This document shows positions 19,521 through 58,410 of a stretch of 64,000 bases of DNA, in pieces (the first letter of the stretch is position 1; every line of letters begins with the position of its first letter). Made by a program: the position numbers and the translations under genes. The stretch is from Obrimoposthia wandeli (lineage: Eukaryota), in NCBI GenBank assembly GCA_977020255.1, contig CDROCS010000973.1:124001-188000 (forward strand), written 5' to 3'. The notes beneath the pieces were generated by a model. It was not told the DNA's origin and made no database searches. It was given only the letters and a program-made list of their open reading frames with translations.

Positions 19521-19665
19521 TTAACAATGGGTTTATTCAATTTTCCCTATTATCCACTAATATATGAATTACAGTATTCATTCAATTTTATAATTTTTAT
19601 TTATTATTGTTTTCACTACTTATACTTGTCAATAGTATGTATTAACTGCTGCCTTATGATGTCAG

Positions 19666-20142
19666 GGCCTCAGCAGCACTTTGCGTGACAGTTACGATCT
19701 GCGCCACAGCATCTGTGACAGTCTCAGTCAGTTGAGAGCCTCGTGTCAATTGCCGCCGTTCTGTAACCTTAAGCAGTGCCTGCGTACAGTTGTCAACACC
19801 GTTACCGCGGCAACGGCCACCTCACTGCAACCGACAACAACAGTCATCAATGACAACAGCCCCATCACGGACAGTCATATGCCACGACACGCTAACCCCA
19901 TAAGCACAGCTTCTTCCACCTCCGTCATGTTCCGGTCATCACCATCGACACCGTCTCTGGCAACAACCGGATCATCTTCGTCTCCGACCCGGTCTCCCAT
20001 GACAACTGCTACCACTCACTTCCCTGTTGCCATGACACTGGGTAACGACGAAACTCCAAAACTTGTATTCATGCCGAACGAGGTCAGCTCCACTACACTG
20101 GTCCCGGATACAGTGAAGCGGAGTATGCATGACTTTGATGAG
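19666..20142 (+). CDS. PLCL: PLC-like protein, C-terminal helical region exon with Ser/Thr-rich insert
   Basis: gatgtcag|19666, donor 20142|gtcagt, 159 codons, phase 0/0. LRDSYDLRHSICDSLSQLRASCQLPPFCNLKQCL parallels PLCL IRDATDLRENMQ...CGL...NL.QC. Confidence 0.8.
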
Positions 20143-20224
20143 GTCAGTATCATCACAATCTCCTCATCCTCATCATCATCAGCTTTCTTCTTCTTTATCC
20201 TCATTTATAATCGTTCCTCTTCAG

Positions 20225-20278
20225 CTGATGCATGCTTGTCGTACTGCAATACAAGATGGACCAATAATGTTTGAGAAG
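20225..20278 (+). CDS. PLCL: PLC-like protein, short exon
   Basis: Polypyrimidine tract then ttcctcttcag|; LMHACRTAIQDGPIMFEK; |gtcagt; phase 0/0 after an 82-nt intron. Confidence 0.78.
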
Positions 20279-22711: not shown

Positions 22712-22903
22712 ATTGACTGTTGTCGGAAGCTAATGCTGAGCCAACACGAAAGTCTGGACAGTCTGTGTGAGCAGAACGACATCAAGATTGGCTCTCGCAA
22801 GGCGGAGCGGGTTTTGGAGAACTATGTGTGGAATCTGCGGCTGTTACAGGGCCAATGTGATCTGCTGTCGCGCCTCATCCAAGAGGCATCTGAGCACATA
22901 CAG
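22712..22903 (+). CDS. PLCL: PLC-like protein, C-terminal exon
   Basis: ctatttag|IDCCRKLMLSQHESL...KAERVLENYVWNLRLLQGQCDLL...EHIQ|gtgagc; parallels PLCL AVESFTWNITILKGQADLL; phase 0/0. Confidence 0.85.
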
Positions 22904-23145
22904 GTGAGCACAACCCAAATCATCGGGCCTGTCAATTTCAACACATCCTTAGCATCGGTTTTTGAAGCTTCCAACGGCGATTGCAAACATAGGTTGTGGA
23001 GTTCATTCAATTTGCTAAGGTCGTCAAGACTTATTCGTGCAAACATCCCTCAAAAGATAATACACAGAGGGTTTAATCAGGTGATCAAACAGGTTTAAAA
23101 CTATTAAAATTTCAAATCTATGTAAATTTTCTTTTAAATTTACAG

Positions 23146-26129: not shown

Positions 26130-27056
26130 AGTAGGTGGATGTGTCTGGTCTAATCCACACACCCCCTCCCCCCTTGTCCTTTAAAACCGTGCATGTGTGT
26201 GGAGTGAAATTTCACTCCACACACATGCATAGTTTTAAAGGACAAGGGTGGAGGATTCCCCCTAACAATGTTTCGCGCCTTTAGGCGCGATGGGCTCGGG
26301 ACTGATATAGGTCACAGACTAGCTTGGCGATGTACGAATGTTTCGCTCTCATATATGTCACAGACTAGCTTGGCGATGTACAAATGTCTCGCTCTCGTAT
26401 ATGTCACAGACTAGCTTGGCGATGTACGAATGTCTCGCTCTCGTATCTGTCACAGACTAGCTTGGCAAAATACGAATGTCTCGCTCTCGTATATGTCACA
26501 GACTAGCTTGGCGATGTACGAATGTCTCGCTCTCGTGTATATCACTAACTACCTCGGGTGATGGGTGAAAGTCGACGGGTGTTGGATGGAAACACCCAAC
26601 CGACCACCACCCGCCCCTTAGGGGCGGGCTATATTCTCACGAAAATAACAACGATTGGTGTTGGGTGAAAGTCGATGGGTGATGGGTAAATGTCGGTGGG
26701 CGTTAGGCTGGTGGTGTTTCACCACCAACACTACACCCACAACATCACANNNNNNNNNNNNNNNNNNNNNNNNNNNNNNNNNNNNNNNNNNNNNNNNNNN
26801 NNNNNNNNNNNNNNNNNNNNNNNNNNNNNNNNNNNNNNNNNNNNNNNNNNNNNNNNNNNNNNNNNNNNNNNNNNNNNNNNNNNNNNNNNNNNNNNNNNNN
26901 NNNNNNNNNNNNNNNNNNNNNNNNNNNNNNNNNNNNNNNNNNNNNNNNNNNNNNNNNNNNNNNNNNNNNNNNNNNNNNNNNNNNNNNNNNNNNNNNNNNN
27001 NNNNNNNNNNNNNNNNNNNNNNNNNNNNNNNNNNNNNNNNAACACTCCACCCACTG
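26130..27056 (+). repeat. Left TIR of element 1 (palindrome, 46-bp array, GC hairpins, CCACA-type repeat running into an N gap)
   Basis: Inverted match to about 33656-34632; after the gap, aacactccacccac matches the TIR-internal segment at 53270. Confidence 0.88.
26311..26540 (+). repeat. 46-bp tandem array, 5 copies
   Basis: Unit gtcacagactagcttggcgatgtacgaatgtctcgctctcgtatat starting at 26311, 26357, 26403, 26449 and 26495. Confidence 0.95.
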
Positions 27057-27337
27057 CCTGCCCCAATATATTTTTATCACATTTTTTCATTCAAAATATT
27101 GTCTAAATGTTTCATTTCCAACCAGTAAGAAATTGTCACTTTTATTAACTTTTCAACAAATATCCAGTGGATTATCGTAAGTGCTTAGAAATAAAAGTAT
27201 TTTATAAGTAAGGTACCGTAATCGTTTGCGTATAGGTTACAAGCATGTATGTATACTGTATTTGCGCTAAAATCAGTGATGTTTTAAGTACTTTCTCTAA
27301 GATGTACACTTGCCTTCGTGTGAGCTGTATAAATGAT

Positions 27338-27610
27338 TTAATTATTTATTTGTCTTAATGTGGTACATACCCGTAAAGTATGTATCATTGGCAAGACCAT
27401 AGGCGGAATCGTTGGTTTCTTTTGGTGCCTCAAGTGACTTAATTTCTCTATGAATTCCTTGTAGAACAAGTCATTCCCAATGTCTGTTTGTAATAACAGT
27501 ATTGTGTACCATTGACGTTTCGTGAGATCCGCTTTACATCTTCTAAGATCAAATGAATCATTCCTGGCGTAGTCTACCAATTTGTATCTTATTGTTTCAC
27601 CAACATCCAT
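27338..27610 (-). other. Unassigned ORF fragment inside element 1
   Basis: 90-aa ORF with protein-like composition (QWYTILLLQTDIGNDLFYKEFIEKL); family not established. Confidence 0.35.
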
Positions 27611-28249
27611 GTAGATTTTGTGAACGTCTACATTATCTTCAACAGTAACAAGGTCAGATAATCCTCAGCTCTTTTATCTCACTATATCACAGCATCAACA
27701 ATTTATAAAACAACCACACTTACACACACCCTTGTTAGTAATGGCCAATCGCAGAAAACACAAGATTCAGCAATTTTGAATCACATTATGAAATGTAATC
27801 TAACGTACATTTCATAATTTTCAACATTGAAAAGTCTCCTAAAGAAGCTTATTAGTTTGATCAGACTTATAAAAATAATGATAATAGTATAAAGTGTCGA
27901 TTTTTGTCTGGGAACACGCTTGAGTAATTTTTGATGTTTAAAGATTTTATGTAATGATCATTTGAAAATACTTCGAAAACTTAAAATACTGAAAAACCAG
28001 TTAAAGGCTGAGCACACAGCAAATGAAACAGTTTTAAATTATGCATAGTTTACAAAATAGAAATCCTAATCATCTTGGTCTTAAAGTCAAATTGCATGGT
28101 TTTTTGATTTGTAAAATGTTGATTTCATTTATTAATTTTAAATGAAAACGCTTTTAAACAACTCCTAGGCTTAATCGGTTAATATTATATTAAAATATTT
28201 ATCTGTACTCACTTTCAACTTCTTCAAGCAGTGCAAAAAATTTCGCATA

Positions 28250-29265
28250 AATTATGCCACATTCGGTTCGGTACATTAAGCTCTTGGGAAATTTCTTGTA
28301 TACCTCAAGCTTCAAAGAAATATTTATCTTTAACTGTATATACTGAATTATGTAGTTTAAGATTTATATATTAACTGCAGTTTTTGAGAGGGTCTTTAAA
28401 AAATTTAACGTAATCTTTAAATGCATGGTCAATTACACAGTCAGTGTTCCCAGCTTCGGTTAATCATAAGAATTGTTCCGTATAAATTTGCGAAAACCTT
28501 CTCAGATTTACAAAATACTACAAAAATCGCACCTATAACTGAATTTGAGAGTGTAAGTCTTCAAGACAATAATGAGACCCGTACATTTTGGGAGAATAAT
28601 TGTCGAAATCTTCTAGATTATATGCTTTATTATTTGAAGTTAGATATTTATTTTTTAGCTGATGTGTTTGAGTCTTTTTATGTAAAATCTTTAGCAGAAG
28701 ATGGGCTAGATCCCATACATTTCTTTAGTTTGACTGGTATTTCATGGGCAACGGCAATAAAAATATTTATATTAATATCGAGTTACTGCAAGATCCTGCG
28801 ATGTATCAAATTTATGATTATGGTATACGCGGTGGAATGACTTTTGTCAACAAACATCATGTTGTCAAAAATCAATCCACGGAGATTCTACATCGACATT
28901 AATAATTTGTATGGGTGGGCGCTTACTCAACCTCTACCTCATGCCAACTTTAAGTGGGTTTATGATGAGGAAGAGTTGAATAAGTTGATGACATATTTGG
29001 CTACTGTTGATACAGTTTCATCAGACATCGGCTATTTGGTTAAGGTTGACTTAACAATCCCTTCCAATGTGCATGATAAATTAGATGATCTTCCAGTAGC
29101 ACCTGTTCATCAATGTCCACCTAATTCAAAGGTTAAGAAATTATTCTCAACATATGGAGACAAGTTGAATTACGTGGTGCATTAGTGGTTCCTTAAATTT
29201 TACTTAAAGTTGGGAGCGAAATTCATTCAAATTTATTGTGCTTTAAGCATTAGTCAAAACTTAAA
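28250..29265 (+). pseudogene. Protein-primed DNA polymerase B fragment
   Basis: RFIDSLQF-region homolog, GIFPY-region, KLDIYFLADVFESF, GGMTFV and motif A YIDINNLYG; frameshifts and stops; closely matches 46780-47318 and 63560-64000. Confidence 0.92.
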
Positions 29266-29357
29266 ATAAATAAAAAATAAAAAATACATAATAAAAATAA
29301 AAAATATATAATAAAAAATAAAATATATAATTACAATTTACAAAAATAAAAAAATAC

Positions 29358-29939
29358 CTAATGAAGGCAATCCAAGTTGAGCTGGAATGAAGTCCTCTTC
29401 ATTGACGAAATCCATCCAGCTGTCGTCCGTTGACTCGACGAAATCGGATTCCTCGATGGTCTCCAACCATGAGTTATCGCTCCACTGCTCTATCTCGAAA
29501 TCTGACTGGGATATGTCATTCATCCACTCATTGTTAGACATTTGAATGGATGGGTCAGAATCAGGAGCCGGGAGACCAATCGCAGGACCGTAAAAGGGTT
29601 GATCGACTGCAACTAGAATTGGAGCTGGAGCGACCTGCGAATCGCGCTTCAATTGGACGATATCCCTCTTCTTGTTGTTGGCCGTGAAACACGATAGATG
29701 AGCTCGATGTTCACTGAAGAAGTCTCGAAAATCCTTCTCCTCCATTGTTCTGCAGAATGGGCAGACGAAGAAGTGAACACCTTGAGACTTTGTCCGGTGG
29801 CATGCAGACATTGTCTCCATGCAGGTCTCTCCTCCATGCGGAGCCGAAGCACCACAATATGCAGGGAATAGGTTACAAGTAATCTGAAATAATAAATATT
29901 AATAAGGAAATAATAAATATAGATTCTTACCATAGGCAT
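29358..29939 (-). CDS. Spliced Cys/His-rich (putative Zn-finger) accessory gene B, 3'-truncated
   Basis: Exon 1 29939-29931 (MPM)|gtaaga, 47-nt intron ending tatttcag|, exon 2 29883-29358 in frame (ITCNLFPAYC..C..CH..CPFC..H..H..C, acidic W-rich tail), donor |gtattt conserved at 44809. Confidence 0.72.
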
Positions 29940-30155
29940 TATTTCAAATTGTCGGGGATTTAAATGAAGAAAGTGTTTGCTTATATACTAAAATTTATGC
30001 ACACATGCTCTTTTCCTATTGGATTAAAAAATTGAGAAGGTTTGTTTATCTGTTAAATGGTCGAAAAAAATACTTTTTTATTCCTCCAATCAAATGGCTT
30101 ATTTGTAAATAATTGTAAAATTTTAATAATGAATTTATCCAATTAGAAGAATTGT

Positions 30156-30644
30156 TTATCTACACGTCAAGTAATAATAAGAAAGACTTAAACATTTTTT
30201 ATATGCGCAATGGTCACCATGATTACGATATGGACAGCAAATATTTCGTGGAATTTTTAATAGATGATCACGTGAAATATTTAAAGTTTTCAGCCTCAAT
30301 TTGGAAAAATTTTTTTTTAAAGTCATATACTTTTTGCCATCCATTTCATCTAAAACATAAAAAATTCCATTTTCAATATCAAAATTAGATTTTATTGTAT
30401 TGAAAATACATATTTCATAAAAAGCCTTATGTCCTTCTTTCCATTTTAATAAATGGAAATATTTAGCTAGATATAAATTAGTAAATTTTTTCTTATAATC
30501 TAAACTTTTAAACGGTGTATATATTTGAAATATGAAATGCAATGGATGAAAAACGTCGCATACATCCATAATACATAATTCTTTTATAATATAATCCCCA
30601 TTTTTGTTAATGAAAGCCTCAAAATCTATGATATATTCCTGCAT
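30156..30644 (-). CDS. DnaQ/DEDD-fold nuclease-like protein with C-terminal Cys/His cluster
   Basis: Intact 162 aa: IIDFEAF...IIKELCI...FHLLKWKEG...CCPYRNHGDHCAYKKC. D-x-E in the first strand; I recall this pattern from arthropod Polinton-associated ORFs. Confidence 0.6.
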   Translation of the reverse strand: MQEYIIDFEAFINKNGDYIIKELCIMDVCDVFHPLHFIFQIYTPFKSLDYKKKFTNLYLAKYFHLLKWKEGHKAFYEICIFNTIKSNFDIENGIFYVLDEMDGKKYMTLKKNFSKLRLKTLNISRDHLLKIPRNICCPYRNHGDHCAYKKCLSLSYYYLTCR

Positions 30645-30723
30645 AATTATCTAAATTGCAGCAAATCCCGTTGTTTATAACGAAGTACTTTCATGTTAAG
30701 ATTGGTATATTTTGTCAATTCTC

Positions 30724-31086
30724 CTATGTAACATAATCAATAAAAACAAAATAATAATCAAAAATTTTATTTTTTGTAGAAGGACCCTCTTCCGGTTTAA
30801 TCTGGAAGATTCTCTTTCTTGCTGCTAACCGAACATCCTCCGTCTCTTCTCTTCTTTTTTCCTCCACCTTCTTTTTTTCCATTTCGATTTTCTTGTTCCA
30901 CTCCACGACCCGACGTCGTTCTGCTAGCCTCCTATCATGTATCTCCACCCGACGATTCCACTCGGTCGCGACAGCAGTATACAAATTCTGGTTGAGGATC
31001 CTCTTTCTTAAGTCCCCTTTCTTCTCATTTATTCTGATGTTTGCTTCAATCTTCGTCACCAGACTCTTCATTTTAATGAATTCCAT
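30724..31086 (-). CDS. Charged coiled-coil protein of unknown function
   Basis: Intact 120-aa ORF with internal EWNRRVE/EWNKKIE repeat, co-oriented with neighbouring element genes. Confidence 0.55.
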   Translation of the reverse strand: MEFIKMKSLVTKIEANIRINEKKGDLRKRILNQNLYTAVATEWNRRVEIHDRRLAERRRVVEWNKKIEMEKKKVEEKRREETEDVRLAARKRIFQIKPEEGPSTKNKIFDYYFVFIDYVT

Positions 31087-31289
31087 TTTTTAATTATGAA
31101 GAGGTTAATAAATTTGAACCTATATATATAAATTTAAGATATTTTTTAATCCAATTAAATGATATTTTTTTATTTATCAAATGAGAGTTTAATAAATCTA
31201 TAACTTATCATTGCAAATAAACTTAAAGATAGTATTTCTAAATTTAAAATTTTTTAAAAAAATAAATATTAAGAAGAAAACATATGAAA

Positions 31290-33104
31290 CTAATGTTTAT
31301 AAATTATATTTTTGAACATTTTTACGAAGTCATCATTGGGATCATCCGGGTCGTAATCCCTCCGACTAAGTATAATTGGAGAAAGCGGTACTGGTTCCTT
31401 CTTTGGCCAACTCGGTTTCTTTTTCGGTTTCACCGGTTGCTTTGTAGCAATTGTCCTTCCCTCGGGTTTTGGTAATAGTTGCCGCAACTTTTTGGGAGGA
31501 GGTGCAGCCGATGTTGATGGCCCTGTCATAGAAGTCCTCTTCCTCTTCCGCGGAGCTTTCTTCTGTTTCTCCTCTTTCTCACGCTGAAGCTGGCGTGAGA
31601 CGGCACCCTGTTGCCCTCGCGAATCTGGAAGCATTGCCGGTGAATCCAGTTCCGCCAGGAATTCGTCCAAACCAGCTTCATCCCAGGCCCTCATTAAGTT
31701 CTGGCTGGTTGTTGGATGAGGAGAAGCAGTCTCCTGCAGGCGTCGTTGACTTGAGGGCGGACTTATCTCGATCGGTGAGACTGGGATCCTCTCGTATAAA
31801 ATTGGCCCGTCGTCCACTGGAGATTGGAGAATTTCCTGCCGTCCAATCACCGCCTCAGAATAATGGCCAATTGAGGTTTTAGATTTTCTTGAGCGCCTCG
31901 TCTTCTTCACCTCTGCCCTCTTCGACCGTTTCCGCGAGAAAGGAGTAATTTCTCCCCAAGTCTCCTCAAATATCTGGACGGGTTCCTACAAAATATTAAT
32001 AAAATTTAAACATATAAATAATTTACCTCAATGATGGGCAGGTTAGCCTGTTTCACCAACTTGGCCTTCTTCCTAGTGAGGGTTTTGACCCGATGGCGTT
32101 GCGGTTTCTTAACGGCCGCTTGCTTCCTATCCAGCGGTTGAATAGGCGTCGCCTCTTCGTGGATGTTCTCCATCTATGTGAATTATTAAATTTAATATCT
32201 AAATAAATTACCTGAAAATTATCTGGAGACGCTAGGTATCGGAGCTGACTCCTTGGCAGCTCCTGGCTGCATTGACTCGCCAAGTACTGCGGTTCAATCA
32301 GCCTCTCCGTCATAGTCACTGACGGTGCCAAATCCAGTTGAAGTTTCTGAAAATGAAATTAAAAAACATTTAAAATAAATGATGTCTAACCTCATTCGTC
32401 GCTTTTATTCTCCTAACAGGAGATTTCGGCCTTTTGAATGGTTCAGGCATTGTATTATCTGCTTTCGGAGTAGCAGAGGGAGTGAGACCATCCCAATCGT
32501 CGGTGAACAGGTGCCACTCGTCCTCGTCCAAGTCTGCTATCATCGATTCGTTGGCTCCTGGGGCTCCGATACTTGGCTGTATCCATTAGTCGATGAATGG
32601 AGTCAAGTCCTCCTCCCCATCCGAAGGTACATCATCGGTGAACAGCTCCTCGTCTGAGTCTGGTGCGAGGACTTTCTCCGGTTGAGACAGCGGGATCAAT
32701 TTCCAGGAGCATTTGATTGCCGCCTCAAAATTGTCGAAGAGATTGGATCTCCCTGCTGCTACTGCTGAAGTTGCCGGACGATTGGGTTTTGTGTTTTGTC
32801 TGGGAGTACAGTCTTCCCAATTCTCTATCGAATCCTGATTAGTCAGATCGATATATTGGGATCTCTGTACCCCACCTCTCACGTCCATTGGTTCTTCTCT
32901 TGGAGTTGAGCTGGCCAATGAGGCTTCTTCTTGTAACAGGTTCGCTCTTGCTGCTGCTTCTCCTTCGCTCACCACCGATGACTCTTGACTATCTAAGTCA
33001 AAGTATTGCGACGGTGGTGGCGTTCGCTGCTGCAATGGAGAGAGATCCCCATAGAGTTGAACCTCCGTCTCTTCGTCTAGGTCAACGTTGTTGTAGAATG
33101 GCAT
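31290..33104 (-). pseudogene. Four-exon accessory gene A (acidic N-terminus, basic/NLS-rich C-terminus), one premature stop
   Basis: Exons 33104-32391, 32346-32212, 32173-32027, 31985-31290; GT-AG introns of 44, 38 and 41 nt, all phase 0; about 563 codons; TAA at 32586-32588 where the paralog has GAA. Confidence 0.85.
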
Positions 33105-33179
33105 TGTTGATTTATGAAAAATAATGAACGGAGGTGTCTTTATATACACAAACATCTTACTAACCCTCTTTTATTGTCC

Positions 33180-34632
33180 AATGAGAGCCTCTTATTCAAA
33201 TAATTTATTTTTTGTAATGTTTTTTCGTGCCTGTAGATCAAGAATGAAGTCCGCCCCTAAGGGGCGGGTGGTGTATGTTAGGGTATGACACGGGTCGTTT
33301 ACATTTGTAGTTGTGAGAGGTAAAGTGATACTGTAGCGCATGTTTTTGTAGTTATTTTCGCGAGAATGGAGCCCGCCCCTTAGGGGCGGGCGTATNNNNN
33401 NNNNNNNNNNNNNNNNNNNNNNNNNNNNNNNNNNNNNNNNNNNNNNNNNNNNNNNNNNNNNNNNNNNNNNNNNNNNNNNNNNNNNNNNNNNNNNNNNNNN
33501 NNNNNNNNNNNNNNNNNNNNNNNNNNNNNNNNNNNNNNNNNNNNNNNNNNNNNNNNNNNNNNNNNNNNNNNNNNNNNNNNNNNNNNNNNNNNNNNNNNNN
33601 NNNNNNNNNNNNNNNNNNNNNNNNNNNNNNNNNNNNNNNNNNNNNNNNNNNNNNNTGGGTGTAGTGTTGGTGGTGAACCACCACCAGCCTAACGCCCACC
33701 GACATTTACCCATCACCCATCGACTTTCACCCAACACTCGTCGACTTTCAGCCAACACCCATCGTTGTTATTTTCGTGAGAATAGAGCCCGCCCCGAAGG
33801 GGTGGGTGGGGGTCGGTTGAGTGTTTCCATCCAACACCCGTCGACTTTCACCCATCACCCGAGGTAGTTAGTGATATACACGAGAGCGAGACATTTGCCC
33901 ATCACCCAAGCTAGTCTGTGACATATATGAGAGCGAGACATCCGCCCATCACCCAAGCTAGTCTGTGACATATACGAGAGCGAGACATTCGTACATCGCC
34001 AAGCTAGTCTGTGACATATACGAGAGCGAGACATTCGTACATCGCCAAGCTAGTCTGTGACATATATGAGAGCGAGACATCCGCCCATCACCCAAGCTAG
34101 TCTGTGACATATACGAGAGCGAGACATTCGTACATCGCCAAGCTAGTCTGTGACATATACGAGAGCGAGACATTCGTACATCGTCAAGCTAGTCTGTGAC
34201 ATATACGAGAGCGAGACATTCGTACATCGCCAAGCTAGTCTGTGACATATATGAGAGCGAGACATTCGTACATCGTCAAGCTAGTCTGTGACATATACGA
34301 GAGCGAGACATTCGTACATCGCCAAGCTAGTCTGTGACATATATGAGAGCGAGACATTCGTACATCGTCAAGCTAGTCTGTGACATATACGAGAGCGAGA
34401 CATTCGTACATCGCCAAGCTAGTCTGTGACCTATATCAGTCTCGAGCCCTTCGCGCCGAAAGGCGCAAAAAATTGTTAGGGGGGACCCCCCCTTTGTTTT
34501 TTAAAACTATGCATGTGTGTGGAATGAAATTTCACTCCACACACCTACACGAAATTTCACTCCACACACATGCACGGTTTTAAAGGACAAGGGGGGAGGG
34601 GGTGTGGATTAGACCGGACACATCCACCTACT
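33180..34632 (-). repeat. Right TIR of element 1 and its inward extension
   Basis: 33656-34632 is the reverse complement of the left TIR; 33180-33395 matches 53285-53500 and 57610-57830. Confidence 0.85.
33880..34430 (-). repeat. 46/47-bp tandem array, 12 copies
   Basis: 12 occurrences of gctagtctgtgac; reverse complement of the left-end unit; some units carry a gcccatcaccc variant. Confidence 0.95.
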
Positions 34633-36242: not shown

Positions 36243-37283
36243 TTATCTGACACGTGACTTTTTGGGAATTGGAGGAAGGGCTATTTTCTTTGTGGTGTTC
36301 AGATTTCTCTGTGACCGAGGAGCAATAAATCTTCTGAAAGAGTCAACATTTTGCAAGGACCACAAGTTGTAGGCTCTATGGATCACGTCATTCAGATCGA
36401 GATGGCTGATTGGTTCTCGAGAACTCGATATTCGGACAACTGGCGCCAAGGTTGGGTCGTCGTTGACATTTCGATCGGCCTGACCGAGAATCGACCTGTA
36501 AATGTAATGAACGTTGAGGATTAATCACTGCTTAATGGTTATAGAATTCCATGTTATGTTCTACAGCATTCTCAACACCACCATCATCACTGGTACTAAC
36601 TCATTAACATATATGTAACAAGTTAAACAGCACGGACCATTCTCGCGGAGTTCTGTGTGTCACAGAGTCACAGGCCGCGGCTGAAACCACACCTGTCTGC
36701 TCCAGGCAGCGTGATATCTCCCGGCGACCGAGCTTGCGTGACAGAAGGTACGGTGTGAGCCCAAGGTCATTGGTTACGTCGCCGCTGACGCCGCGCGCGT
36801 GCATGTGCTCGCATAGGGACCTGAGCACACATGATCAAGTGGTCATTACACAGTTGCACGGTACCCAGCTGAGATACAAGTGTGTGGCGCACTCACCGAA
36901 CGATGGGTAGCACACCAGTCAGCACAGCAAGGTGCAGGTAACAGTTGCCGTCTTGGTCCGGTCTGTGGAAATCGAGATCCCAGGCCAGAGCGGCTTCTGC
37001 CACAGCCTTGAACTCTGTCCAGAGGCCGCGCGCGCAGCACCAGTGTATGGGATCTCTGGGACCACCTTCGCCACTTCGTCTGTGGCTGCTGTTGTCGGGG
37101 TTGTACTGCCGACGCCAGTAGCTGTGTCTATGCATCTCCGTGCGCAGTCGCTCGCGCCAGCTGAGACATCTACCGCCAACTGGTGCTAGCAGAATGGCCA
37201 ACATCGCACGTCTCTTGGCACCGTCCTCGCAGAGAAGACAGGCACTCACCGCCTCTGCAACTGGGGTCGTCCTGCATCGCCAT
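36243..37283 (-). CDS. Small host ankyrin-repeat protein (about 252 aa, 4 exons)
   Basis: Exons 37283-37250, 37185-36897, 36820-36638, 36495-36243 with GT-AG introns and consistent phases (1,2,2), total 759 nt; ANK motifs DQDGNCYLHLAV and NDLGLTPYLLS; GC-rich like the host PLCL exons. Further 5' exons are possible. Confidence 0.82.
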
Positions 37284-42057: not shown

Positions 42058-42190
42058 ATTAGGTGGATATGTTCATTCTAATCCACCTCTCCCCATTCTT
42101 TGGGGGCTACCACCTTCCTTTAAAACTGTGCATGTGTGTGGAGTGAAATTTCGTGCATGTATGGGGAGATGGAGAGGGGGTGTATACCCC
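42058..42190 (+). mobile_element. Degenerate left terminus of a second, related Polinton
   Basis: attaggtggatatg..ctaatccacc..cctttaaaactgtgcatgtgtgtggagtgaaatttc is homologous to 26130-26212. Confidence 0.75.
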
Positions 42191-42392
42191 ACCCCATTTT
42201 TTTTATTTTACTTTGAATTTTACCGCTAATCTCAAAGGTAAGTAGAAAAGACCACAGGAATCCATATTGACCCCAGCTGCTTATCGCAGACGAGATTTCA
42301 AATAATAAGTTTATGTGAATATATTATTACTAATTTTAAGAAAGATTTGAGATTAATAAATTACTACATTTTGTTAAATATTTAGGTCAGTT

Positions 42393-43500: not shown

Positions 43501-45295
43501 ATGCCTTTCTACAATAATGTTGACTTAGAGAAAGAGATAGAGGTGGAGCTGTATGGGGATCTCTCTCCAGTACAGCAGCAAACACCACCACCGTCGCAGT
43601 ACATTGACTAACTTAGTCAAGACTCGTCGGTGGTGAGCGAAGAAGAAGCAGCAGCAAGAGCGGAGCTGATAGAATAAGCATCATTGGCTAGCACAACTCT
43701 GACAGAAGAACCAATGGGTGCGAGAGGCGGGTTACAGAGATCCCAATATATCAACCTGACAAGTCAGGATTCGATTGCAAATTGGGAAGACTGTACTACC
43801 CGGCAGAATACAGAGGCTGCTCGTCCAGTAACTTCGGCAATAGCAGGAAGGAGATCCAATTTCTTTGACAATTTCGAAGCAGCAAACAAATGCCCCTGGA
43901 AATTGATCCCGCTGTCTCAACCGGAGATAGTCCTCGCACCGGACTTTGATGAGGAGCTATTCAGTGATGATGTACCGTCGGATCAAGAGGAAGATTTGAC
44001 TCCATTCATTGACGAATGGATTCAGCCAAGTCTCGGAGCCACTGACAACGCATCTGTCAAACAAGTCAATGGTGGCAAAATTGGACGACAGCGAGTGACG
44101 GCTGTTCACGGACGAATGGGATGGTCTCACTCCGTCTGCTACTCCAACTCCTATAGCAGACAATACAATGCCTGAACCATTCAGAAAGCCACAATCTTCG
44201 ATACGGGCTATTAAGAGAATAAAGGCAAAGAACGAGGTTAGACTTAATTTATTTCAAATGTTTTATAATTTCCTTTTCAGAGACTTCAACTCGATTTGTC
44301 ACAGTCAGTTACCACGGTGGAGAAGCTGATAGAACCGCAATAATTGGCGAGTTAAAGCAGCCAGGAGCAGCCAATGAGCGAGCTCCAATACCTAGCGTCT
44401 TCAGATAATGTAAAGGTAACTTATTTTTTAATTAGATATTAAATTTAATAATACACATAGATGGAAAAATTTCTCGAAGAGGCGACGCTTATTCAACCGG
44501 TGGATAGAAAGCAAGCAGCAGTTAGGAAACCACGACAACATCGGGTCAAAACCCAGACAGTCCTCCGGAAAAAGGCGAAGTTGGTGAAACAGGCAAACCT
44601 GTCTTTTATTGAGGTAAATTATTTATATATTTAAATTTTATTAATTTTTTACAGGAATCAGTCCAGATAATTGAGGAGACATGGTTGACAAACAGCGGGT
44701 TAGAGGACATCGAGGAGTCCGATTTCGTCGAGTTAACAGACGACAGTTGGATGGATGCTGTCAATTAAGAAGACTTCCAACCAGCTACAGTTGGATTGGT
44801 TTCATCAGGTATTTTTTATTACGATTTTTCTTATGATTTTTTAAAATTGTAATTAATAATGTCATATGTTTTATTTAATTTTTTTATATTTAATCCGGAA
44901 ATTCCTTGAGACAAACGTTACCGTCGTCGACTGTGGTAGCTATGCCTCCTTCATCGCGACTGCCTACATCGATGTATGCACGCCTTAGAGGTAATAATTA
45001 AATTAAATGTTATATTTTTAATATATTTTTTTCAGCAGATGCAACATTGGCCTCCACAATAGTCGCTTCCTGAACTTCCTTGCCAGCTACAGGATACCGA
45101 GTGGCCCCAATCTCCTATGCAGCCTCTACAAGCGCCATCGCCTCATTATCTGCAACACCACCTTCTACATCAGCACATACTACAGCAGCACCTTCTACAT
45201 CAGCTGCGATTGCCTCAACTTCAGCAGCACCGACATCTTTTAATATAAATAGTTATATTCTCATTCAATTATGGGAGGCTTGTCAGCGACAGTAG
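43501..45295 (+). pseudogene. Gene A/gene B chimeric paralog, multi-exon, many stops
   Basis: MPFYNNVDL start; introns 44237-44280, 44416-44460 and 44614-44654 at the same positions as gene A; exon 4 switches to gene B sequence (IEESDFVE..DDSWMD); further donors at 44809 and 44991; Ser/Thr/Ala-rich last exon. Confidence 0.85.
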
Positions 45296-47811
45296 GAAGA
45301 AAGAGGCTAGGCCAATTTCTTAATAAGGTCCCACCAAAGAAACGTAGGGAAAACGGTGCTACTATAGAGTATCACCTAAATAATAAATATGTTATAGTTA
45401 AGGTGCCATTAGGAAATGAAATTTTATTAAATGTAGGTGTAGATTCAAATATTGAAAATCTTTTAAAATCAGAAGTGACTAAATTAGGACAGGCTAAGGT
45501 TCAATTTTGCGCAACAGTGCAGTTTAAAAATGTCAATGAGGAAACTAAAACTTGGGTAATTTCACATAAAGCAACTGTTTTTTTATGATAATTTTGTAAC
45601 TGAAATTGGAAGAAACCTTGATGAAAAAATTGCTAATTATAGCGAGTTAAGTAGTGGATGGACTCTAGTTAGAATTCACGATGTTAGCTTTGTTCTAACA
45701 AAGTTCACTGACATGATATATCTTTCGGGGAGTTCATACATTCCTTCACCTAGATCTCTTCAACTTTCACATTCCATTGTTAACGTACAAAACAGTGATA
45801 ACCTTTGCTTTCTATATATCAAAAGGGGTGTAATTACTGAGCATAGAGAGCGTGTCAGTAAATATACCCCTTTTTTAAATGAATTCCAGTATCATGGAAT
45901 AGATTTTCCTGTTAAATTAACTGCGATATCAAGATTTGAACATCTTAATAACTTGAGTATTAATGTATTCAAATATAATACTGATATCCCAGTTAATGTA
46001 ACAGATGAAGAAATTTTTAAAAATCCTTTTGTAGATGTAATTTATAGGAGCAAAAATGAGGGGACTCAGGTCAACTTAATTTTGCTCGAACATAATAAAA
46101 AATTCCATTATGCTGCAATTCCCAATTTAGATCGTCTTCTAAATTTAGATAATGGAGCCTTACCGGTTAGGATAAGGTGTAAGTGGTGTCATAGATGTTT
46201 GCATGGGTTGCGATCCGAGCTCCCTTACAGCAAACATCTGACATTATGTTCACTGAATCCTGATGACAATACGTTATACACCATGCCTAAGGATAAGGAT
46301 TTAAAATTCAGGGATTGGGCAAAATGCATACCCGTGGAATTCAGGGTGTATGCAGATTTTGAGTCAATTTTAGCATTGCACGACCAGTATGAGAGTATTC
46401 TCCTACCGGCTTCGGCAGGACTACTATTCTTAGGCCCCAATATTACCCAGTATCATAAATTTTCCGGTCCAAATTGTATTTTAGATTTTATGTTAAAATT
46501 AGAGGAATTAGGAACAACAATTGTCAAACCGTGGTATGATCTCAATGCTCATCAAGCAATGATCATGACAGGCATAGACTGGGTTAATTTTAATTCTTGT
46601 AGATTATGTTATTTGTGTGGAACCCAGTCTAAGTTAGTCAGAGATCATGATCATGTTACGGGGTGATACTTGGGAGCGGCGTGCAACCTTTGTAACCTTG
46701 GCCGTCGTCTCCCTAAAAAACCACGCATTCCCATCGTGTTTCATAACTTCAAGGATATGATTTCCATCATATACTTAAATACGCTTTGGGTACATTAAGC
46801 TCTTGGGAAATTTCATGTATACCTCAAACTTCAGAGAAATATTTATCTTTAACTGCATATACTGAATTCTGCAGTTTAAGATTCATAGATTCTCTGCAGT
46901 TTTTGAGTGGTTCTTTAAAAAATTTAACGGCATCTTTAAATGCATGGCCAATTACACAGTCAGTGTTCCCAGCTTCGGTTAACGATAAGGGGATTTTTCC
47001 GTATAAATTTGCGAAAACTTTTGTAGATTTAGAAAATACAACTGAAATCCCACCCATAACTGAATTTGAAAGTGTAAGTCTTCAAGACTATAATGAGGCC
47101 CGTACATTTTGGGCGAATAATTGTCGAAATCTTTTAGAATATATGCTTTATTATATGAAGTTAGACATTTATCTTTTAGCTGATGTTTTTGAGTCCTTTC
47201 GTGTAAAATCTTTAGCAGAAGATGGGCTAGATCCCATGCATTTCTTTAGTTTACCTGGACTTTCATGGGCAACAGCAATAAAAACTCTTAAAATTAATAT
47301 CGAGTTACTGCAAGATCCCGCGCAGATCAAAATCGCAGCTGTGAACACTGACTCTTTCTTTTTAGAATGTAAAAATGTTAGTTTAAATAATCAATTATTA
47401 CCGGCAATGTTTAGGGACAACTTATTAGATACCTATAAATATCCCGCTAACCATCCTCTACACTCTATGAGTTTAAAGGATATTATCGGGAAATTTAAGG
47501 ATGAAAGCGAGGGACAGGTTTCGTATGATGATTGTATTTTTCTACGCCATAAATGCTACAGTGTACATGCATCTAATAATACATGTTCAATAAGAGCAAA
47601 GGGTGTGGGAAGAAACAATCTTACACATGAGGCCTACCGGAAAGTTTATGATACTGGGTGTATTGAAAGCGTTGAGCAAACTAGATTTATTTCAAGAGCC
47701 CATCAACTGTATTCCCATAAATCAACAAAAATCGCTTTGAGTAGAAATGACAACAAGCGCTTTTGGGTAGAAAAGAACGCTAGCCTGGCTTATGGACACT
47801 TTAGAATTTAA
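45271..47811 (+). pseudogene. Protein-primed DNA polymerase B (pPolB), frameshifted, with internal deletion
   Basis: SGW..., GSSYIP, NVQNSDNLCF, YADFESI, C..C...RDHDHVTG, RFIDSLQF, GIFPY, TDSFFL, IGKFKDE, RAKGV, KIALSRNDNKR. Jumps from ELLQDP to the motif C region at about 47318. Confidence 0.95.
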
Positions 47812-48073: not shown

Positions 48074-48373
48074 CTAATCGTTTTGCATCGATAACCATAA
48101 AATACATAAATGTCCACATTTTCTCGTCGCAGGATCCTGATATTGTATCTTGTTGTAAAATACTCTTCTTCGTCCTTTTTGAATAGTTGAAACAAATTTG
48201 TATGGATAATACATTGCAAGTGGATCAAATACATGTATTGTCCACTCTCTAACATAAATAGCTATCCAATGTTCTCCTGGTAAATTCGAAGTATGAGTAT
48301 TGATAATGTAACCTCCAGATTGAAAAAATGGAATCATATCAATAGGATAAACTCCATTGAATTTATCACCCAA
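48074..48373 (-). CDS. Adenain-like cysteine maturation protease (5' end degraded)
   Basis: FNGVYPID...IINTHTSNLPGEHWIAI...FDP...IQYQ...CGHLC gives the His/Asp/Gln/Cys set of adenovirus-type proteases. Confidence 0.9.
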   Translation of the reverse strand: MGDKFNGVYPIDMIPFFQSGGYIINTHTSNLPGEHWIAIYVREWTIHVFDPLAMYYPYKFVSTIQKGRRRVFYNKIQYQDPATRKCGHLCILWLSMQND

Positions 48374-48455
48374 GACCTGCTCTGCTGATTCTTGTACTTG
48401 TACTGAACTAAAAAAATATTAATAAATATAAATTTCAAAAATGTCTTACTTCATT

Positions 48456-49685
48456 CTATAATATGACAGTTCTGTTTTTATTGATTTGTAATTCGGAATC
48501 AAACACTCCGTAAATAAGCACCGTAGTAGGATGTGTTAAAGCTGCATTGAACTTAATTTCTAGTCGTAAATTTCCCTCCTTTGGTAGTTGGCATTGGTTT
48601 ATATCAAAGTTTGGTGCCAAAACAAATGTGAAGAACGGGCAGCTGCTTTTAAACTCAGTGAAAGAAATACCATTGTTTATATTTTTATCTAGTTGGCCCA
48701 ACTTCCGAATAATAGATTGCGTATAAGCCAAAGCATAAGCGTTACCTTCGAAATCTGTTTTATATGTTTCGCGATAATCAGTATTTCTTGAAAGTGTCAC
48801 TGAACTTACATTAAGATTGTCAAATTGAGTTGCATCTGTCGTATAATTTTCTAGATACTTTACAGTTTTTTGAAAAGAAATTAAAATGAATTTCGGTAAT
48901 CTTACATCACCAAAAATTTGATTCTTATTAAAAGCTTGTGTACCCGTACCTAAAGAGTAGAATATAAGTTTAGTTTCTCTTATAGGATTACAAGCATTGA
49001 TTTTTTCCATTCCTATATTATGTGCCATTAAAACTGATTGCTCGGTTTAAACTCCTCGGACATACAATTTTGCATCCAAAATATCAAGTCTAGGTTTTAG
49101 AACGTCTGTACTTATCAAAGAAAAATTCCATTTATTACGTTTCAAATGAAGATGTACATTAACACCGGGAATTAAATATTTTGGTTGTTCAAAGAAATTC
49201 AATCTCAATGACCCACACATTTCGTAAGCTTTAGAACCTGCAATCCATTATTTGCGAGTTGCAACCGTTTTATCATAACCAATGGTTGCCAAATTATTAT
49301 TTTGAGTATCAGTACTATAATTCAAAAGACTTTCAATCAAAGCTTTATTAGCATAGGAAGAAATTCCATCTTCAATTTTGACATTATTAAGAGTAACAAT
49401 GGCATCACTAAATAAAGAATTAAAGAGATAATTTACAGGTGTTACATCTGCATTTTCATCTAAATTAGTACCATCCCGATTTAATACTTTTATTTGAACA
49501 TAAATCAAAGTATAATTCAAATCTAAGTACTCGCTATTGGAACCATTAATATTAAATTCTAAATCGGTTAAAGTGGTTCCTGAAACTGAGTTAACTAGGA
49601 ATATTTCTTCAAAGGAATCATTATCTACAACTACTTCTGGGAGTGGTTTATCAAAAATACATAATTCTGTTTTGGCACAACTCAT
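48456..49685 (-). pseudogene. Major capsid protein (double jelly-roll, Polinton PY type), interrupted
   Basis: N-terminal KTELCIFD...EF.I.GS.SEYLDL..TLIYV; C-terminal GNLRLEIKF..AL...TVLIYG.FDS.LQINKNR.V; split into two ORFs. Confidence 0.88.
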
Positions 49686-49792
49686 TTTGCAAATATTGTT
49701 CCTTCAACTTTCTTACGTTTGTTTATATTAATTTTTAGCTTCTTTTTACTTTTAAATCCACTACCTCCTTGGCTTTTATTTGATTTACGTTT

Positions 49793-50059
49793 TCAAATCA
49801 AATTAGCAACTTCAGGTAAAATATTATCAAGTTCATCAAGCGCATGCTTCATAAAAGTTGGTATTAGTTTGTTGTCATTAGATGAAACGTAATCCTTTCC
49901 TAATTTTGATATAAATCGCCCGAGTCTCTTTAAAAGAGGAAAGGCAAATCTACCTAATGTTCTAAGCCAGCCAGATCCATATTGTTTACCAACAAAATAT
50001 GGTAATTCGCCACCTTGTTTGCTTTGACTATAAGCTTCAATTATTGCCTGATTCGCCAT
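49793..50059 (-). CDS. Small Gly-rich/basic core-like protein (QxGxG motifs), C-terminus frameshifted
   Basis: QGGELPYFVGKQYGSGWLRTLGRFAFPLLKRLG; conserved Polinton position between penton and MCP. Confidence 0.7.
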   Translation of the reverse strand: MANQAIIEAYSQSKQGGELPYFVGKQYGSGWLRTLGRFAFPLLKRLGRFISKLGKDYVSSNDNKLIPTFMKHALDELDNILPEVANLI

Positions 50060-51087
50060 TTTGTTTTCTTAAATGTATTGTTAAACTTGTCTTGGCCCCG
50101 TACGTGAAATGTATTAGTTGTCCGGAATCATCTCTAATATTTACTTCAATATTGTTTATAGAAAATAGAGAAACTGGAAGACACATTGGTTGATCTATAC
50201 ACATACCGACAGCGTCCACATCTTTAGTTTCATTTTGAGAAATCCATATTGGAACTTGTTGTCCTTCTACAAGCGTTGATTCTATTAAATTAGTATAAAT
50301 ATATAAATGATTAACAACATTTAAAAGTGTTGCCTTATTTTTAGCTTTTATGGTTTTTATTGTATGGATTTCAAATGTGTTTATGTTTAAACCAAGGTTT
50401 TATGCGAGTTTATCATCAAATAAAACTCGTATTATATTTCTCTTTACTGTAAACGTTATTTTACCATTTTTAATGTTACACATTTATCTAAATATTCACT
50501 ACATTCCTTCTGTATTAATTTACAGAAATTCACTTCACTATCTAATTTATAATCTTTTGAAAACACTTTTAGTTCCACTTCATACTTTGGTCTCGTTTCA
50601 ACTAAAAACACTTTTGTTATTCTATCAGGAACATTTTTAAACGATTTAGATGAGGCTATATCAGATCTCTTCATACCTACTACATGTCCACTGTCAAAAC
50701 CGAAATGGAGAGTTTCTTTATCAGATCCAAATATAATTTGAATAGGTTTTAAAAAATGTTTTATTCGATTTTTAAATCTGACTTTGTAGTTTTCATATAT
50801 TACTTTCACTTCTTTATCTGTACAATTGTAATAGAATTTTCCTTTACTATCAAACCCAATCACAACTTCAATTGATTTTTCATGATCAACTTCTTTGTAA
50901 ACAAAATATGTGAGTTTTTTTTGATAGTAATTGGAGAATAATAAAAGGAAAATTATGTTAAAGCCGCTTCCCATTCTCCTTGGAGATTTATAGGATTTTC
51001 CCAATCGACAATAAAGGTACTAGCGTAATTATCTGGTTGAGTCTTCGGATATCCGTTACTAGGTAAAACCATATATATAGACTTCAT
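50037..51087 (-). pseudogene. Minor capsid protein (penton, PX type), frameshifted
   Basis: N-terminal IYMVLPSN; C-terminal LYIYTNLIESTLV..QQVP...INNIEVNIRDDSGQLIHF...SLTIHLRK. Confidence 0.8.
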
Positions 51088-51088
51088 A

Positions 51089-52105
51089 TTATATTAGATG
51101 CTGATATCCAAGTTGGATCTGAATAACCATGCCATTTAACATAGTATTGTTTATGTTTACTGGCACCCTTAATATTTTTTGAATACGGAAAACGCTAGGT
51201 TTATTTGATATTACTTGTAGTTCTTGCTCGTAAAATTTACTGTGAACGATATTATTGTCAGCATCTTTAATAGTATACATTATTGGATTACTCTTTTGAT
51301 CAATTTTACTTATACAAAATATTTCATCGCTCCAATTCTGATCAAAGTTTTTAATAAATGGAGTAGAGCTAATTTTCGAAATTCGAACATATTCGTTTTT
51401 CTTATATTTAGCTTTTTTAATATTTTCTTTTTTATTCCTTTTCATCCAAATGTCCAAAGAGTTTTTATTAGTAACATCAACAGATCTCATTCCCTTGAGA
51501 CCTCTATGTTCAGAGTGATTATATGCATGTATTATTTTAGGTAAAACTTGGATCCATATTTTATTTCCATCTTTTGTGAAATACTTTTTTATTCGATCTC
51601 TTAAACTACGATTAAATCTTTCTACTACTGCTGCTTTGTATTGTGAAAACACAGAGTAATGATTTATATTATTTTGTTTAAATAATGATTGAACTTGCTT
51701 ATTATAAAATTCTTTTCCTAAATCAGTTTGCACATTTTGTGGAATGTCCTCTTTTAATATTTCTTTAATGGCTTCAAGCATAGCTATTGAAGACTTTGCT
51801 TTAACTGGAATTGCACGAGCAAACCTGCTAAATACATCAATACATGTTAAAATATATCGATATCCCTTATTAATGGAAGAATATGGGATCATCTCCATCA
51901 AATCCATTTGCCATAAATTATTAGGACCGCTGTTTTTGTAAACTCTAGTTGGAAACCTTCTTCTCATCGGCTTGTTCAGACTGTAGGCTAACTGATCGCT
52001 CAGCCATTTCTGCGTTTTCTTGTAATTTTGTTTTGTTCTTTTTGCTAATTTTGAAACTCCTGTGTAGCCAATTGGATCTTTTGGATTGAACCATATCTTC
52101 TCCAT
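51089..52105 (-). CDS. Retroviral-like (rve) integrase, chromodomain tail frameshifted
   Basis: LWQMDL...YILTCIDVFSRFA...QTDLGKEF...KAAVVERFNRSL: intact D-D-E triad. Confidence 0.95.
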   Translation of the reverse strand: MEKIWFNPKDPIGYTGVSKLAKRTKQNYKKTQKWLSDQLAYSLNKPMRRRFPTRVYKNSGPNNLWQMDLMEMIPYSSINKGYRYILTCIDVFSRFARAIPVKAKSSIAMLEAIKEILKEDIPQNVQTDLGKEFYNKQVQSLFKQNNINHYSVFSQYKAAVVERFNRSLRDRIKKYFTKDGNKIWIQVLPKIIHAYNHSEHRGLKGMRSVDVTNKNSLDIWMKRNKKENIKKAKYKKNEYVRISKISSTPFIKNFDQNWSDEIFCISKIDQKSNPIMYTIKDADNNIVHSKFYEQELQVISNKPSVFRIQKILRVPVNINNTMLNGMVIQIQLGYQHLI

Positions 52106-52163
52106 TACAACAATTTGAATAGAAAGAAAATTTAAATTTTGGTAAAGAAGAGTTAGCACCCAT
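51945..52163 (-). CDS. Putative overprinted 72-aa MG-start (myristoylation-like) ORF overlapping the integrase 5' end
   Basis: MGANSS...CC...basic cluster; same length and stop position in the other arm (58940-59158). Confidence 0.45.
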   Translation of the reverse strand: MGANSSLPKFKFSFYSNCCNGEDMVQSKRSNWLHRSFKISKKNKTKLQENAEMAERSVSLQSEQADEKKVSN

Positions 52164-52191
52164 ATCATTAGGTGATTTTTGAATTAATTGT

Positions 52192-52521
52192 TTATGAACG
52201 TGTCGCAGCTATAATACTACTGATAATTGAAGCAACAACTGGAATAACAGCCCCTAGGAAACCACCATTCTTTATAAGAATAATATTTCGTTTCCTTTTT
52301 TTACTTTTTACATTAGCAATATCTAGAAGAGTTTTTCTATATTTCTTTAATATATTTTTCCGATTTCCAAGTTTTACTCGACCCAAAACTATAATATACA
52401 AAACTTCCAATAAATCATCTACAACAAAAGATGGAAATGCTTTAAGAATAATCATTCTCTTATGAGAAGAGGCTTTGACCAAAGCTTTAAAATAGGGTAT
52501 GCTTCTTTATATTTTCTTCAT
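52192..52521 (-). pseudogene. Conserved small basic Polinton protein ending in GGFL plus hydrophobic helix; premature stop after codon 4
   Basis: MKKI*RSIPYFKALVKAS...GRVKL...KRKRNIILIKNGGFLGAVIPVVASII. Confidence 0.72.
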
Positions 52522-52551
52522 TTTAATAAAAAGGTTCAATTTGAATATTGT

Positions 52552-52692
52552 TTATATTCGAAGCCATTTAAGTTTTTTTTGATTTCTAACTACAGATTTG
52601 ATTAATTTTTTCACTTCTTTTTTCTTAATGATTATTTTATTTGATTTCTTAGGCTTTGTTTTACGTTTTACTATCAACATCGTAAAAGGCAT
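52552..52692 (-). CDS. 46-aa Lys-rich micro-protein
   Basis: MPFTMLIVKRKTKPKKSNKIIIKKKEVKKLIKSVVRNQKKLKWLRI; 18 of 46 residues basic; below the ORF-track cutoff. Confidence 0.45.
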   Translation of the reverse strand: MPFTMLIVKRKTKPKKSNKIIIKKKEVKKLIKSVVRNQKKLKWLRI

Positions 52693-52699
52693 TGTAAAT

Positions 52700-53190
52700 T
52701 TATCTTTTATAATTGTTCTCTATTTGTTTATAAACAGTTACTCCCTTAGAATTAAAAATATCGGTTAAAACACGTAAATCATCTGGGCAAGCTTGTGTAA
52801 AGTCAATAAATATATACCCATGTGCTTGCTTAGCAGCATCCTGGAATGAATCAACTAGAAAGTTCTTATTTTGGGGAAACGCCTGTCAGGCCACAAAATC
52901 TACAACTGTTTGATCTCTAGGATTTTTAAATAAAACTAAGTAATGTACATTAAGATTTCTTGTTCTATGGTGACCTCCTTGGTGAAAAAGATTTTGAGTG
53001 ATAAATATAACTGTTACTTAACGATGTCTTGCAATCTTCGTAAATAAATTAGTAAAGTCTGATTCCTTGTTAGCTTCCTGATACAAATCATCAATTATTA
53101 TTACATCTCCTTTTTTCAATCTTTCACACCAATTTGCATCAAATCCTTCAATAAATTGTATTCCCTTCAACTTGCAAACTTCTGTTTTGG
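52700..53190 (-). pseudogene. Packaging ATPase (A32/FtsK-like), C-terminal half only
   Basis: Walker B VIIIDD, LFTKIARHR*VTVIFITQNLF, YLVLFKNPRD, HGYIFIDF; Walker A region is missing, replaced by a (GTGGT)n tract. Confidence 0.9.
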
Positions 53191-53194
53191 TTAA

Positions 53195-53556: not shown

Positions 53557-53572
53557 TAAAAAATTTTAAAAA

Positions 53573-58403: not shown

Positions 58404-58410
58404 ATTTACA

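Follow-up and report, generated by a model that had tools for sequence, protein, structure and literature searches.

Animal Polintons/Mavericks share terminal inverted repeats (TIRs), a 6-bp target duplication, a protein-primed family B polymerase (pPolB), an rve integrase, a protease, capsid proteins and an ATPase, arranged in two facing modules (PMC8097293; PMC11161782). Introns were not seen within genes of intact vertebrate Polintons (PMC8097293). In nematode Mavericks the core genes including pPolB are intronless, and GC-rich, intron-bearing cargo genes lie in the stretch from left TIR to integrase (10.1101/2022.07.12.499685). Adintoviruses carry 'Oncoid' genes upstream of PolB (PMC8502044, whose main text contains no word beginning with 'splic'); alpha adintoviruses are marked by an OTU-like domain at the N-terminus of PolB, and dinoflagellate maverick-polinton-like elements carry introners (PMC11957031). 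In this study we analyzed a 64,000-nt window of the Obrimoposthia wandeli genome (contig CDROCS010000973.1, positions 124,001 to 188,000), in which several decayed copies of one Polinton/Maverick family reside in an animal host. The family shares the features listed above and differs from vertebrate Polintons (PMC8097293) in having three introns in the 5' part of pPolB, so that the described Polinton trait of intronless core ORFs (open reading frames), which does not define the group, fails here for pPolB. A sequence-only reading had proposed an intron-split early region with two spliced accessory genes, A and B; the finding is real but was partly misread, and consists of a Polinton accessory gene A and a core polymerase leader built from small exons and host-sized introns. 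In the left arm of this high-copy animal element, gene A and the 5' end of pPolB are very likely spliced by the host.

Gene A is one four-exon coding gene adjoining the TIR of an internally deleted copy (Table 1), and ORF finders miss it, as had been pointed out. The four segments that the sequence-only reading took for introns (44, 38 and 41 nt in gene A, 47 nt in gene B) lie on the minus strand exactly where it placed them; all are GT-AG and phase 0, with a GC content of 10-18% versus 49-53% in the exons, and each has TTAAT 11-16 nt before the AG. The four ORFs of gene A join as proposed, into exons of 1692 nt in total, equal to 563 codons and a stop. Apart from its 3' end, the gene A span contains no AT islands other than the three introns. 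GT..AG segments of 35-55 nt with a GC fraction of at most 0.2 number four on the coding strand of this span and one on the other strand; the four are the three introns and one in-frame alternative acceptor. The segments have the GT-AG ends, branch-point-like motif, frame kept on removal and host-compatible length of U2-type introns, and the sequence makes it highly likely that they, and the pPolB leader described below, are genuine. The stop at codon 173 is private, being present in one of the 53 copies aligned there. A second AG lies 6 nt past the acceptor of gene A intron 2 (32168-32173, minus strand) and may serve as an in-frame alternative 3' splice site.

Other copies of gene A were collected by two DNA searches of the 1.35-Gb host genome assembly, taking the best 40 matches and 30 loci from each. 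Other copies do not show the general loss of GT/AG that would have spoken against splicing: in 59 of them, 167 of 177 donor ends still read GT and 171 of 177 acceptor ends AG, and the intron lengths (42-48, 38/44/45 and 41-49 nt) drift by non-multiples of three. Exon 2 is constant in length across copies, and most older ones show a 6-nt length difference in exon 3. The selection test compared pN/pS (the ratio of nonsynonymous to synonymous polymorphism) of variants in at least four copies, which mostly date from the active phase of the element, with that of singletons, with Fisher p against singletons at thresholds of 4, 8 and 12 copies. In the proposed frame shared variants gave 0.22, 0.48, 0.27 and 0.37 for exons 1-4, versus 0.76-1.16 for singletons; the other forward frames gave 0.47-2.15 and contain recurrent stops. 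At the threshold of at least eight copies the p values for exons 1-4 were 4e-15, 0.038, 0.033 and 5e-5, and recurrent stops were absent from the proposed frame, versus 1-21 in other frames. The kept splice sites and the purifying selection in the joined frame therefore argue that gene A was one selected coding gene from which all three segments needed removal.

That the AT-rich segments are instead unspliced spacers or promoters between short separate ORFs appears highly improbable, since their GT/AG ends are exact on the coding strand, the donors stand in an AG|GT context, the frame is kept at every junction, the ORFs have no start or stop of their own, and the same design recurs in five metagenome loci, even though the segments are well conserved. 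Contigs from four sequencing runs of unrecorded kind, all from one sample, cover the introns within 31330-33130, and none of the 15 joints shown, of 113, falls at a gene A intron; these runs look like DNA, possibly from the window's own sample, and are uninformative on splicing. The sequence at 43501-44808, previously called a diverged paralog, does keep introns of 44, 45 and 41 nt at the same positions, but it represents gene A itself in an older, decayed state (82-83% identical, with a frameshift and stops). Its exon 4 ends after about 30 nt, where a deletion fuses the remnant to the tail of gene B exon 2.

Gene B had been read as a zinc-finger accessory gene. Its frame continues into pPolB in other copies, and its sequence is homologous to pPolB N-termini; it is therefore the 5' end of the core pPolB, and by this sequence evidence a spliced leader of the core polymerase rather than an accessory gene. 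We scored the leader in 25 loci, which a search with the gene B region had returned. Intron 2 (69-113 nt, donor 29357 in the window) has GT..AG in 21 of 23 measurable copies and intron 3 (43-50 nt) in 22 of 23; the donors listed earlier at 29357/44809 and at 44991 are indeed those of these two introns, the acceptor that belongs to 44809 being decayed. Exon 3 (87 nt) is in frame in 20 of 23 copies. Exon 4, which encodes a Ser/Thr/Ala linker, QLGGG and then PPKKR, is in frame in 16 of 22 and its frame lacks any ATG in 7 of 22. The leader frame runs on through the pPolB motifs and breaks only by private indels. An ATG at 45271 was considered as the pPolB start and rejected for the family, because QLGGG occupies this place in other copies.

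Exon 2 matches residues 3-75 of pPolB P0001 with 30% identity over 74 residues (E 6e-11, pairwise), and of 50 pPolBs found with the polymerase body, 5 match it with scores higher than any of 200 shuffles. In the closest outside pPolBs this Cys/His domain forms the N-terminus of a single called ORF, and C3, C10, C21, C41, F55, H59, H62 and L63 are conserved in eight rows of it. A word search with exon 2 alone gave no match, the link having come through the pPolB body. The Cys/His domain of the window family matches no Pfam family or fold searched: no Pfam family is common to two members, and its predicted fold (predicted local distance difference test, pLDDT, 72) finds nothing in BFVD or PDB by Foldseek at E<=0.001, with C2H2 fingers only at E>=0.8. 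The domain probably binds zinc. No intron-sized insertion common to copies was found in the pPolB body or in seven other core genes (6-9 stretches each), and the introns thus appear confined to disordered parts. Two further candidates were rejected, a 13-residue insertion in the minor capsid protein, which is not GT-AG, and an intron at the end of gene D, where 21 stretches have no GT donor.

Among the closest metagenome loci, 12 of 80 were inspected upstream of pPolB (two, L129 and L137, were left unscored). The leader is open, without introns, in L124, L125, L127 and L132; it has three introns in L128 and in L130 (and the matching L131), four in L126, and two each in the sisters L123 and L136. 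These introns are 44-53 nt long with a GC content of 4-19%, and all 14 of 14 are phase 1. All nine internal leader exons in the five spliced loci are multiples of three, and the frame traced back from pPolB reaches an ATG in all three loci where a start codon is in view. Gene order in L131 is that of the window family, with core genes as single ORFs; an ORF scan of it begins pPolB at an internal Met and loses the Cys/His domain. The tree has 29 rows; on it, well-supported branches force three changes for the spliced state and three for the open one, and a single origin occurs in 0 of 200 bootstrap trees. The clustering of spliced leaders is weak, as 33 of 500 shuffles were as low as the tree. 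The nearest rows to the window family are open leaders. The row of L129, which is out of frame with a meaningless long branch, was left in and belongs to no group. Intron places cannot be matched because the linkers do not align. The simplest reading of these states is repeated gain with some loss, most likely in disordered, weakly constrained coding regions.

Several of these loci have further features of their own. L126:1-470 contains four phase-1 introns (50, 46, 50 and 46 nt) around three 66-nt exons, two of which begin IQTGGA, meaning that blocks of an exon plus an intron, with a GG motif, were duplicated in tandem. The pPolB leaders at L123:348-489 and L136:881-1033 are without the Cys/His domain and consist of tiny duplicated exons with two 44-46-nt introns. 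A two-exon accessory gene with a phase-0 GT-AG intron of 43 or 41 nt is present at L131:11437-10801 and L136:644-about 180 (both minus strand), in different arms; its second exons are weakly alike (score 58, versus 46 for the best of 500 shuffles). In the arm beyond the ATPase, L131:10318-10764 (minus strand) encodes a TATA-binding-protein homologue (Pfam TBP, E 2e-17).

The contrast once drawn with host introns of at least 63 nt does not hold. Our host sample consists of three myosin genes from a myosin-head search of the genome. The first has introns of 240, 50, 48, 50, 63, 58, 46, 50, 53 and 41 nt, removal of which leaves 624 open codons, so that 8 of its 10 introns are 41-58 nt long; the other two show introns of 44, 45, 85 and 40 nt. 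The element introns are at the low end of the host short-intron class (40-63 nt), and only the 38-nt intron of gene A is below anything measured in this three-gene sample.

TATA and CCAAT stand at -42 to -83 of each of the genes A, D and pPolB, gene C has CCAAT only, and AATAAA follows A and C. Since the TIR homology ends at 33187, only GC boxes upstream of gene A are inside the TIR, and the sequence speaks against a single region driven by a TIR promoter. An early unit like adenovirus E1, TIR-driven and with A and B as separate spliced accessory genes, would be favored by gene A adjoining the TIR, by its acidic-then-basic order and the seven GC boxes upstream, and by the typical position of adintovirus 'Oncoid' genes (PMC8502044). 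Gene A also resembles Oncoid and adenovirus E1A in being an accessory gene upstream of PolB for an acidic, likely nuclear protein. Such a unit is nevertheless very unlikely, since B shares the reading frame of pPolB as well as homology with pPolB N-termini, and the TATA/CCAAT and poly(A) signals are separate. Unlike Oncoid/E1A genes, which are marked by LxCxE ahead of a CK2 site and by paired CxxC, gene A has no LxCxE and no paired CxxC: the pattern [LIM]xCxE is absent from the gene A exons and B exon 2, exon 1 of gene A has only two Cys and exons 3-4 none, and the Cys/His domain belongs to pPolB.

No homologue of gene A was obtained. It has no Pfam match; exon 1, taken as far as the stop, was used in a word search for longer proteins that found none, and neither did tblastn in 91 related loci. 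A 9-row profile run against 1.84 billion representatives gave one match, a repetitive 2553-aa protein, which was rejected on its sequence; AlphaFold gave exon 1 a pLDDT of 47 and no fold. The motifs resembling SUMO-interacting motifs (SIMs) and the clusters resembling nuclear localization signals (NLSs) are putative pattern matches. Gene A could also be a captured host cargo gene that brought its own introns, with only the pPolB introns arising in the element; this is compatible with the spliced reading and concerns the origin of gene A only. Its exons have a GC content of about 50%, versus about 30% in the core genes, and the missing homologue in the related loci as well as the TIR-side place and introns, which match the nematode cargo region (10.1101/2022.07.12.499685), fit this origin. 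We consider it unlikely, as no host-like domain or relative was found (the host-donor search being confined to top-scoring repeats), the introns of gene A and pPolB are of one style (GC 5-18%, with TTAAT similarly placed), and they are more AT-rich than most host myosin introns (GC 15-43%). The nematode cargo genes wasp and krma encode folded enzymes (10.1101/2022.07.12.499685), whereas gene A is disordered and without known family.

We propose that host RNA polymerase II would start gene by gene at the TATA/CCAAT promoters, and that the U2 spliceosome of the host would remove the host-sized introns by intron definition. pPolB would then be made with a leader of about 280 residues, comprising the Cys/His domain, an acidic stretch and the Ser/Thr/Ala linker. 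Adenovirus-type proteases follow an xGG cleavage rule, and the leader has QLGGG at its end, a likely cleavage site for the cysteine protease that the element itself encodes. The gene A protein, disordered, acidic then basic, and nuclear, would most likely be a transcription or SUMO-linked regulator of the element, although the role as a nuclear regulator is held tentatively and is somewhat doubtful. With a spliced front end of pPolB, the element likely needs the host splicing machinery for its replication protein. Leader splicing might even be deliberately skipped or retained, the host splicing state acting as an on/off switch of replication. All linker introns are phase 1, which leaves symmetric exons skippable in frame; retention of any intron that is not a multiple of three would end the frame, and one locus has tandemly duplicated exons, two of which repeat a TGG motif. 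Symmetric phase also follows from duplicating one intron-exon block, however, and close relatives manage without introns, so that such a switch is quite unlikely. Equally speculative, and to be doubted to the same degree, is the broader scheme in which this Polinton clade repeatedly gains minimal host-type introns in the polymerase leader, yielding symmetric, skippable and duplicable exons with protease sites, and the host splicing state then sets replication timing and the released leader protein.

Several points weigh against host splicing of gene A and the pPolB leader as set out here. That the segments leave the RNA is an inference from the DNA sequence. Splice-site retention is inflated, because the queries by whose similarity the copies were chosen include the introns. 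The signal from gene A exon 2 is weak: the threshold of four copies gives p 0.079 with two recurrent-stop columns, and that of 12 copies p 0.15. For pPolB exons 2-4 the selection test is not significant (p 0.06-0.42), and the sole support for the frame in that test is that recurrent stops are absent only from the proposed one. Between subfamilies the introns are about 0.9 alike and the exons only about 0.82, which would fit a mutation bias against G/C and dense splice signals. The metagenome intron ends were read by eye before the frame check. The lack of a gene A homologue leaves its role to composition and motif patterns. Finally, a vOTU domain, not the Ulp1-like protease, is proposed as the pPolB-processing enzyme in PMC11161782.

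The accessory-gene half of the finding is less new, because intron-bearing cargo of nematode Mavericks has been published (10.1101/2022.07.12.499685), and the polymerase half is newer than first thought. A spliced pPolB was not found in the literature searched, outside of which lay subscription papers, Repbase entries and supplements; the accessible portions of PMC11161782, PMC11296320, PMC12220804, PMC6431247, PMC8532177, PMC11071296, 10.1101/2023.08.22.554363 and 10.64898/2026.10.13.758929 contain none. Introners are likewise spliceosomal introns inside Polinton-like elements, but they are intron-generating transposons mostly inserted after integration (PMC11957031), whereas the introns here are 38-53 nt long, consist almost wholly of A/T, and have passed to every copy of an active family. 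An introner is defined as a family of similar introns, with repeats, at many unrelated sites. Because surveys grade Polintons by intact single ORFs, spliced pPolB leaders would be cut off or miscalled and genes like A missed. In the adenovirus E2B mRNAs for polymerase and terminal protein, the start codon of the protein-primed polymerase comes from a tiny exon upstream, with long introns and a shared promoter. The tiny start-codon exon of the window family is similar, and here it is combined with minimal introns and a 280-residue leader. A splicing-dependent core replication gene would tie the element to nuclear RNA polymerase II transcription and to the host intron-size class, with a bearing on host range and on whether such elements live as viruses. 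PMC8532177 reports de-repression of Polintons, in connection with piwi knockdown. Since some close relatives have introns in this linker and others have none, they offer a compact system in which intron gain and exon duplication can be tested.

Table 1. Features of the Polinton family in the window (positions in the 64,000-nt stretch).
Feature	Positions	Strand	Remarks
Internally deleted Polinton copy	26131..34632		both termini AGTAGG...CCTACT; 6-bp target duplication ATTTAA on both sides
TIR at gene A end	33187..34632	-	terminal palindrome, 46-nt tandem repeats, 7 GC boxes; part reads N
Gene A core promoter, putative	33140..33182	-	CCAAT (as ATTGG) -78, TATATAA -42; just outside TIR homology
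Gene A exon 1	32391..33104	-	238 codons, acidic, predicted disordered, two SIM-like motifs; stop at codon 173
Gene A intron 1	32347..32390	-	44 nt, GT-AG, phase 0, TTAAT at -13
Gene A exon 2	32212..32346	-	45 codons; weakest selection signal
Gene A intron 2	32174..32211	-	38 nt (44-45 nt in older subfamily), GT-AG, phase 0
Gene A exon 3	32027..32173	-	49 codons; 6 nt longer in most older copies
Gene A intron 3	31986..32026	-	41 nt (41-49 across copies), GT-AG, phase 0
Gene A exon 4	31290..31985	-	231 codons and stop; basic, several NLS-like clusters; AATAAA at 31175
Gene D	30724..31086	-	single exon, basic, own TATA/CCAAT; no Pfam match
Gene C	30156..30644	-	single exon; no Pfam match; AATAAA at 30083
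pPolB promoter, putative	29981..30022	-	CCAAT -83, TATATAA -48
pPolB exon 1	29931..29939	-	3 codons including start codon
pPolB intron 1	29884..29930	-	47 nt, GT-AG in 25/25 copies, phase 0
pPolB exon 2 ('gene B')	29358..29883	-	75-aa Cys/His domain, then acidic, Trp-rich stretch
pPolB intron 2 start, phase 1	29262..29357	-	truncated by internal deletion of the 26131-34632 copy
Older broken gene A copy	43501..44684	+	introns 44237-44280, 44416-44460, 44614-44654; exon 4 deleted early
Rest of pPolB gene, second copy	44698..47811	+	exon 2 tail, intron 2, exon 3, intron 3, exon 4 linker, broken pPolB body
Morphogenesis/integration block, second copy	48074..53190	-	protease, major and minor capsid, integrase, pX, ATPase

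The copy at 26131-34632 has the AG-rich ends and target duplication of Polinton TIRs, and it is dead, with the stop in gene A and the middle of the element deleted. Palindromes centred on GAAATTTC lie just inside both termini (26168-26260 and 34488-34600), with the 46-nt tandem repeats behind them. The gene order of the family, read from longer stretches of other copies, is TIR, A, D, C and B/pPolB in the left arm, and protease, major capsid, minor capsid, integrase, pX, ATPase and TIR in the facing arm. In the window, Pfam matches identify pPolB (PF03175, E 7e-9), whose body in this family is 42-46% identical to full-length pPolBs, and the retrovirus-like integrase (rve, E 4e-13). The capsid and pX matches are weak (DJR-like, E 0.0024; Adeno_PX, E 0.0046), both under the cut-off. 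The ATPase matches at 75% the L131 protein, which in turn matches Pox_A32 (E 2e-6). The protease is a putative one by its gene place and motifs, and is without a Pfam match; gene C, judged by eye, may resemble a DEDD exonuclease. The family is very abundant, with 2300-11734 first-look candidates per query, which are not copy numbers; all 150 scored genome matches were at least 94%, and the copies fall into at least two age classes, with a divergence of about 2-5% and 12-18%.

Elsewhere in the window, the capsid-integrase block is part of a long inverted duplication (49001-53580 versus 57533-62292, 83-98% in pieces), and a third decayed copy thus stands head to head with the second. Two further sequences resembling element ends were found at 42107-43090 around a short minus-strand ORF (42393-42746) without a Pfam match, perhaps a small non-autonomous derivative. 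Host sequence includes plus-strand exons of a phospholipase-C-like gene with long introns (1135-2480, 19660-20274 and 22712-23098, by eye). GC-rich host ORF pieces on the minus strand at 36243-37288 have the look of ankyrin repeats by eye; the one piece scanned is without a Pfam match.

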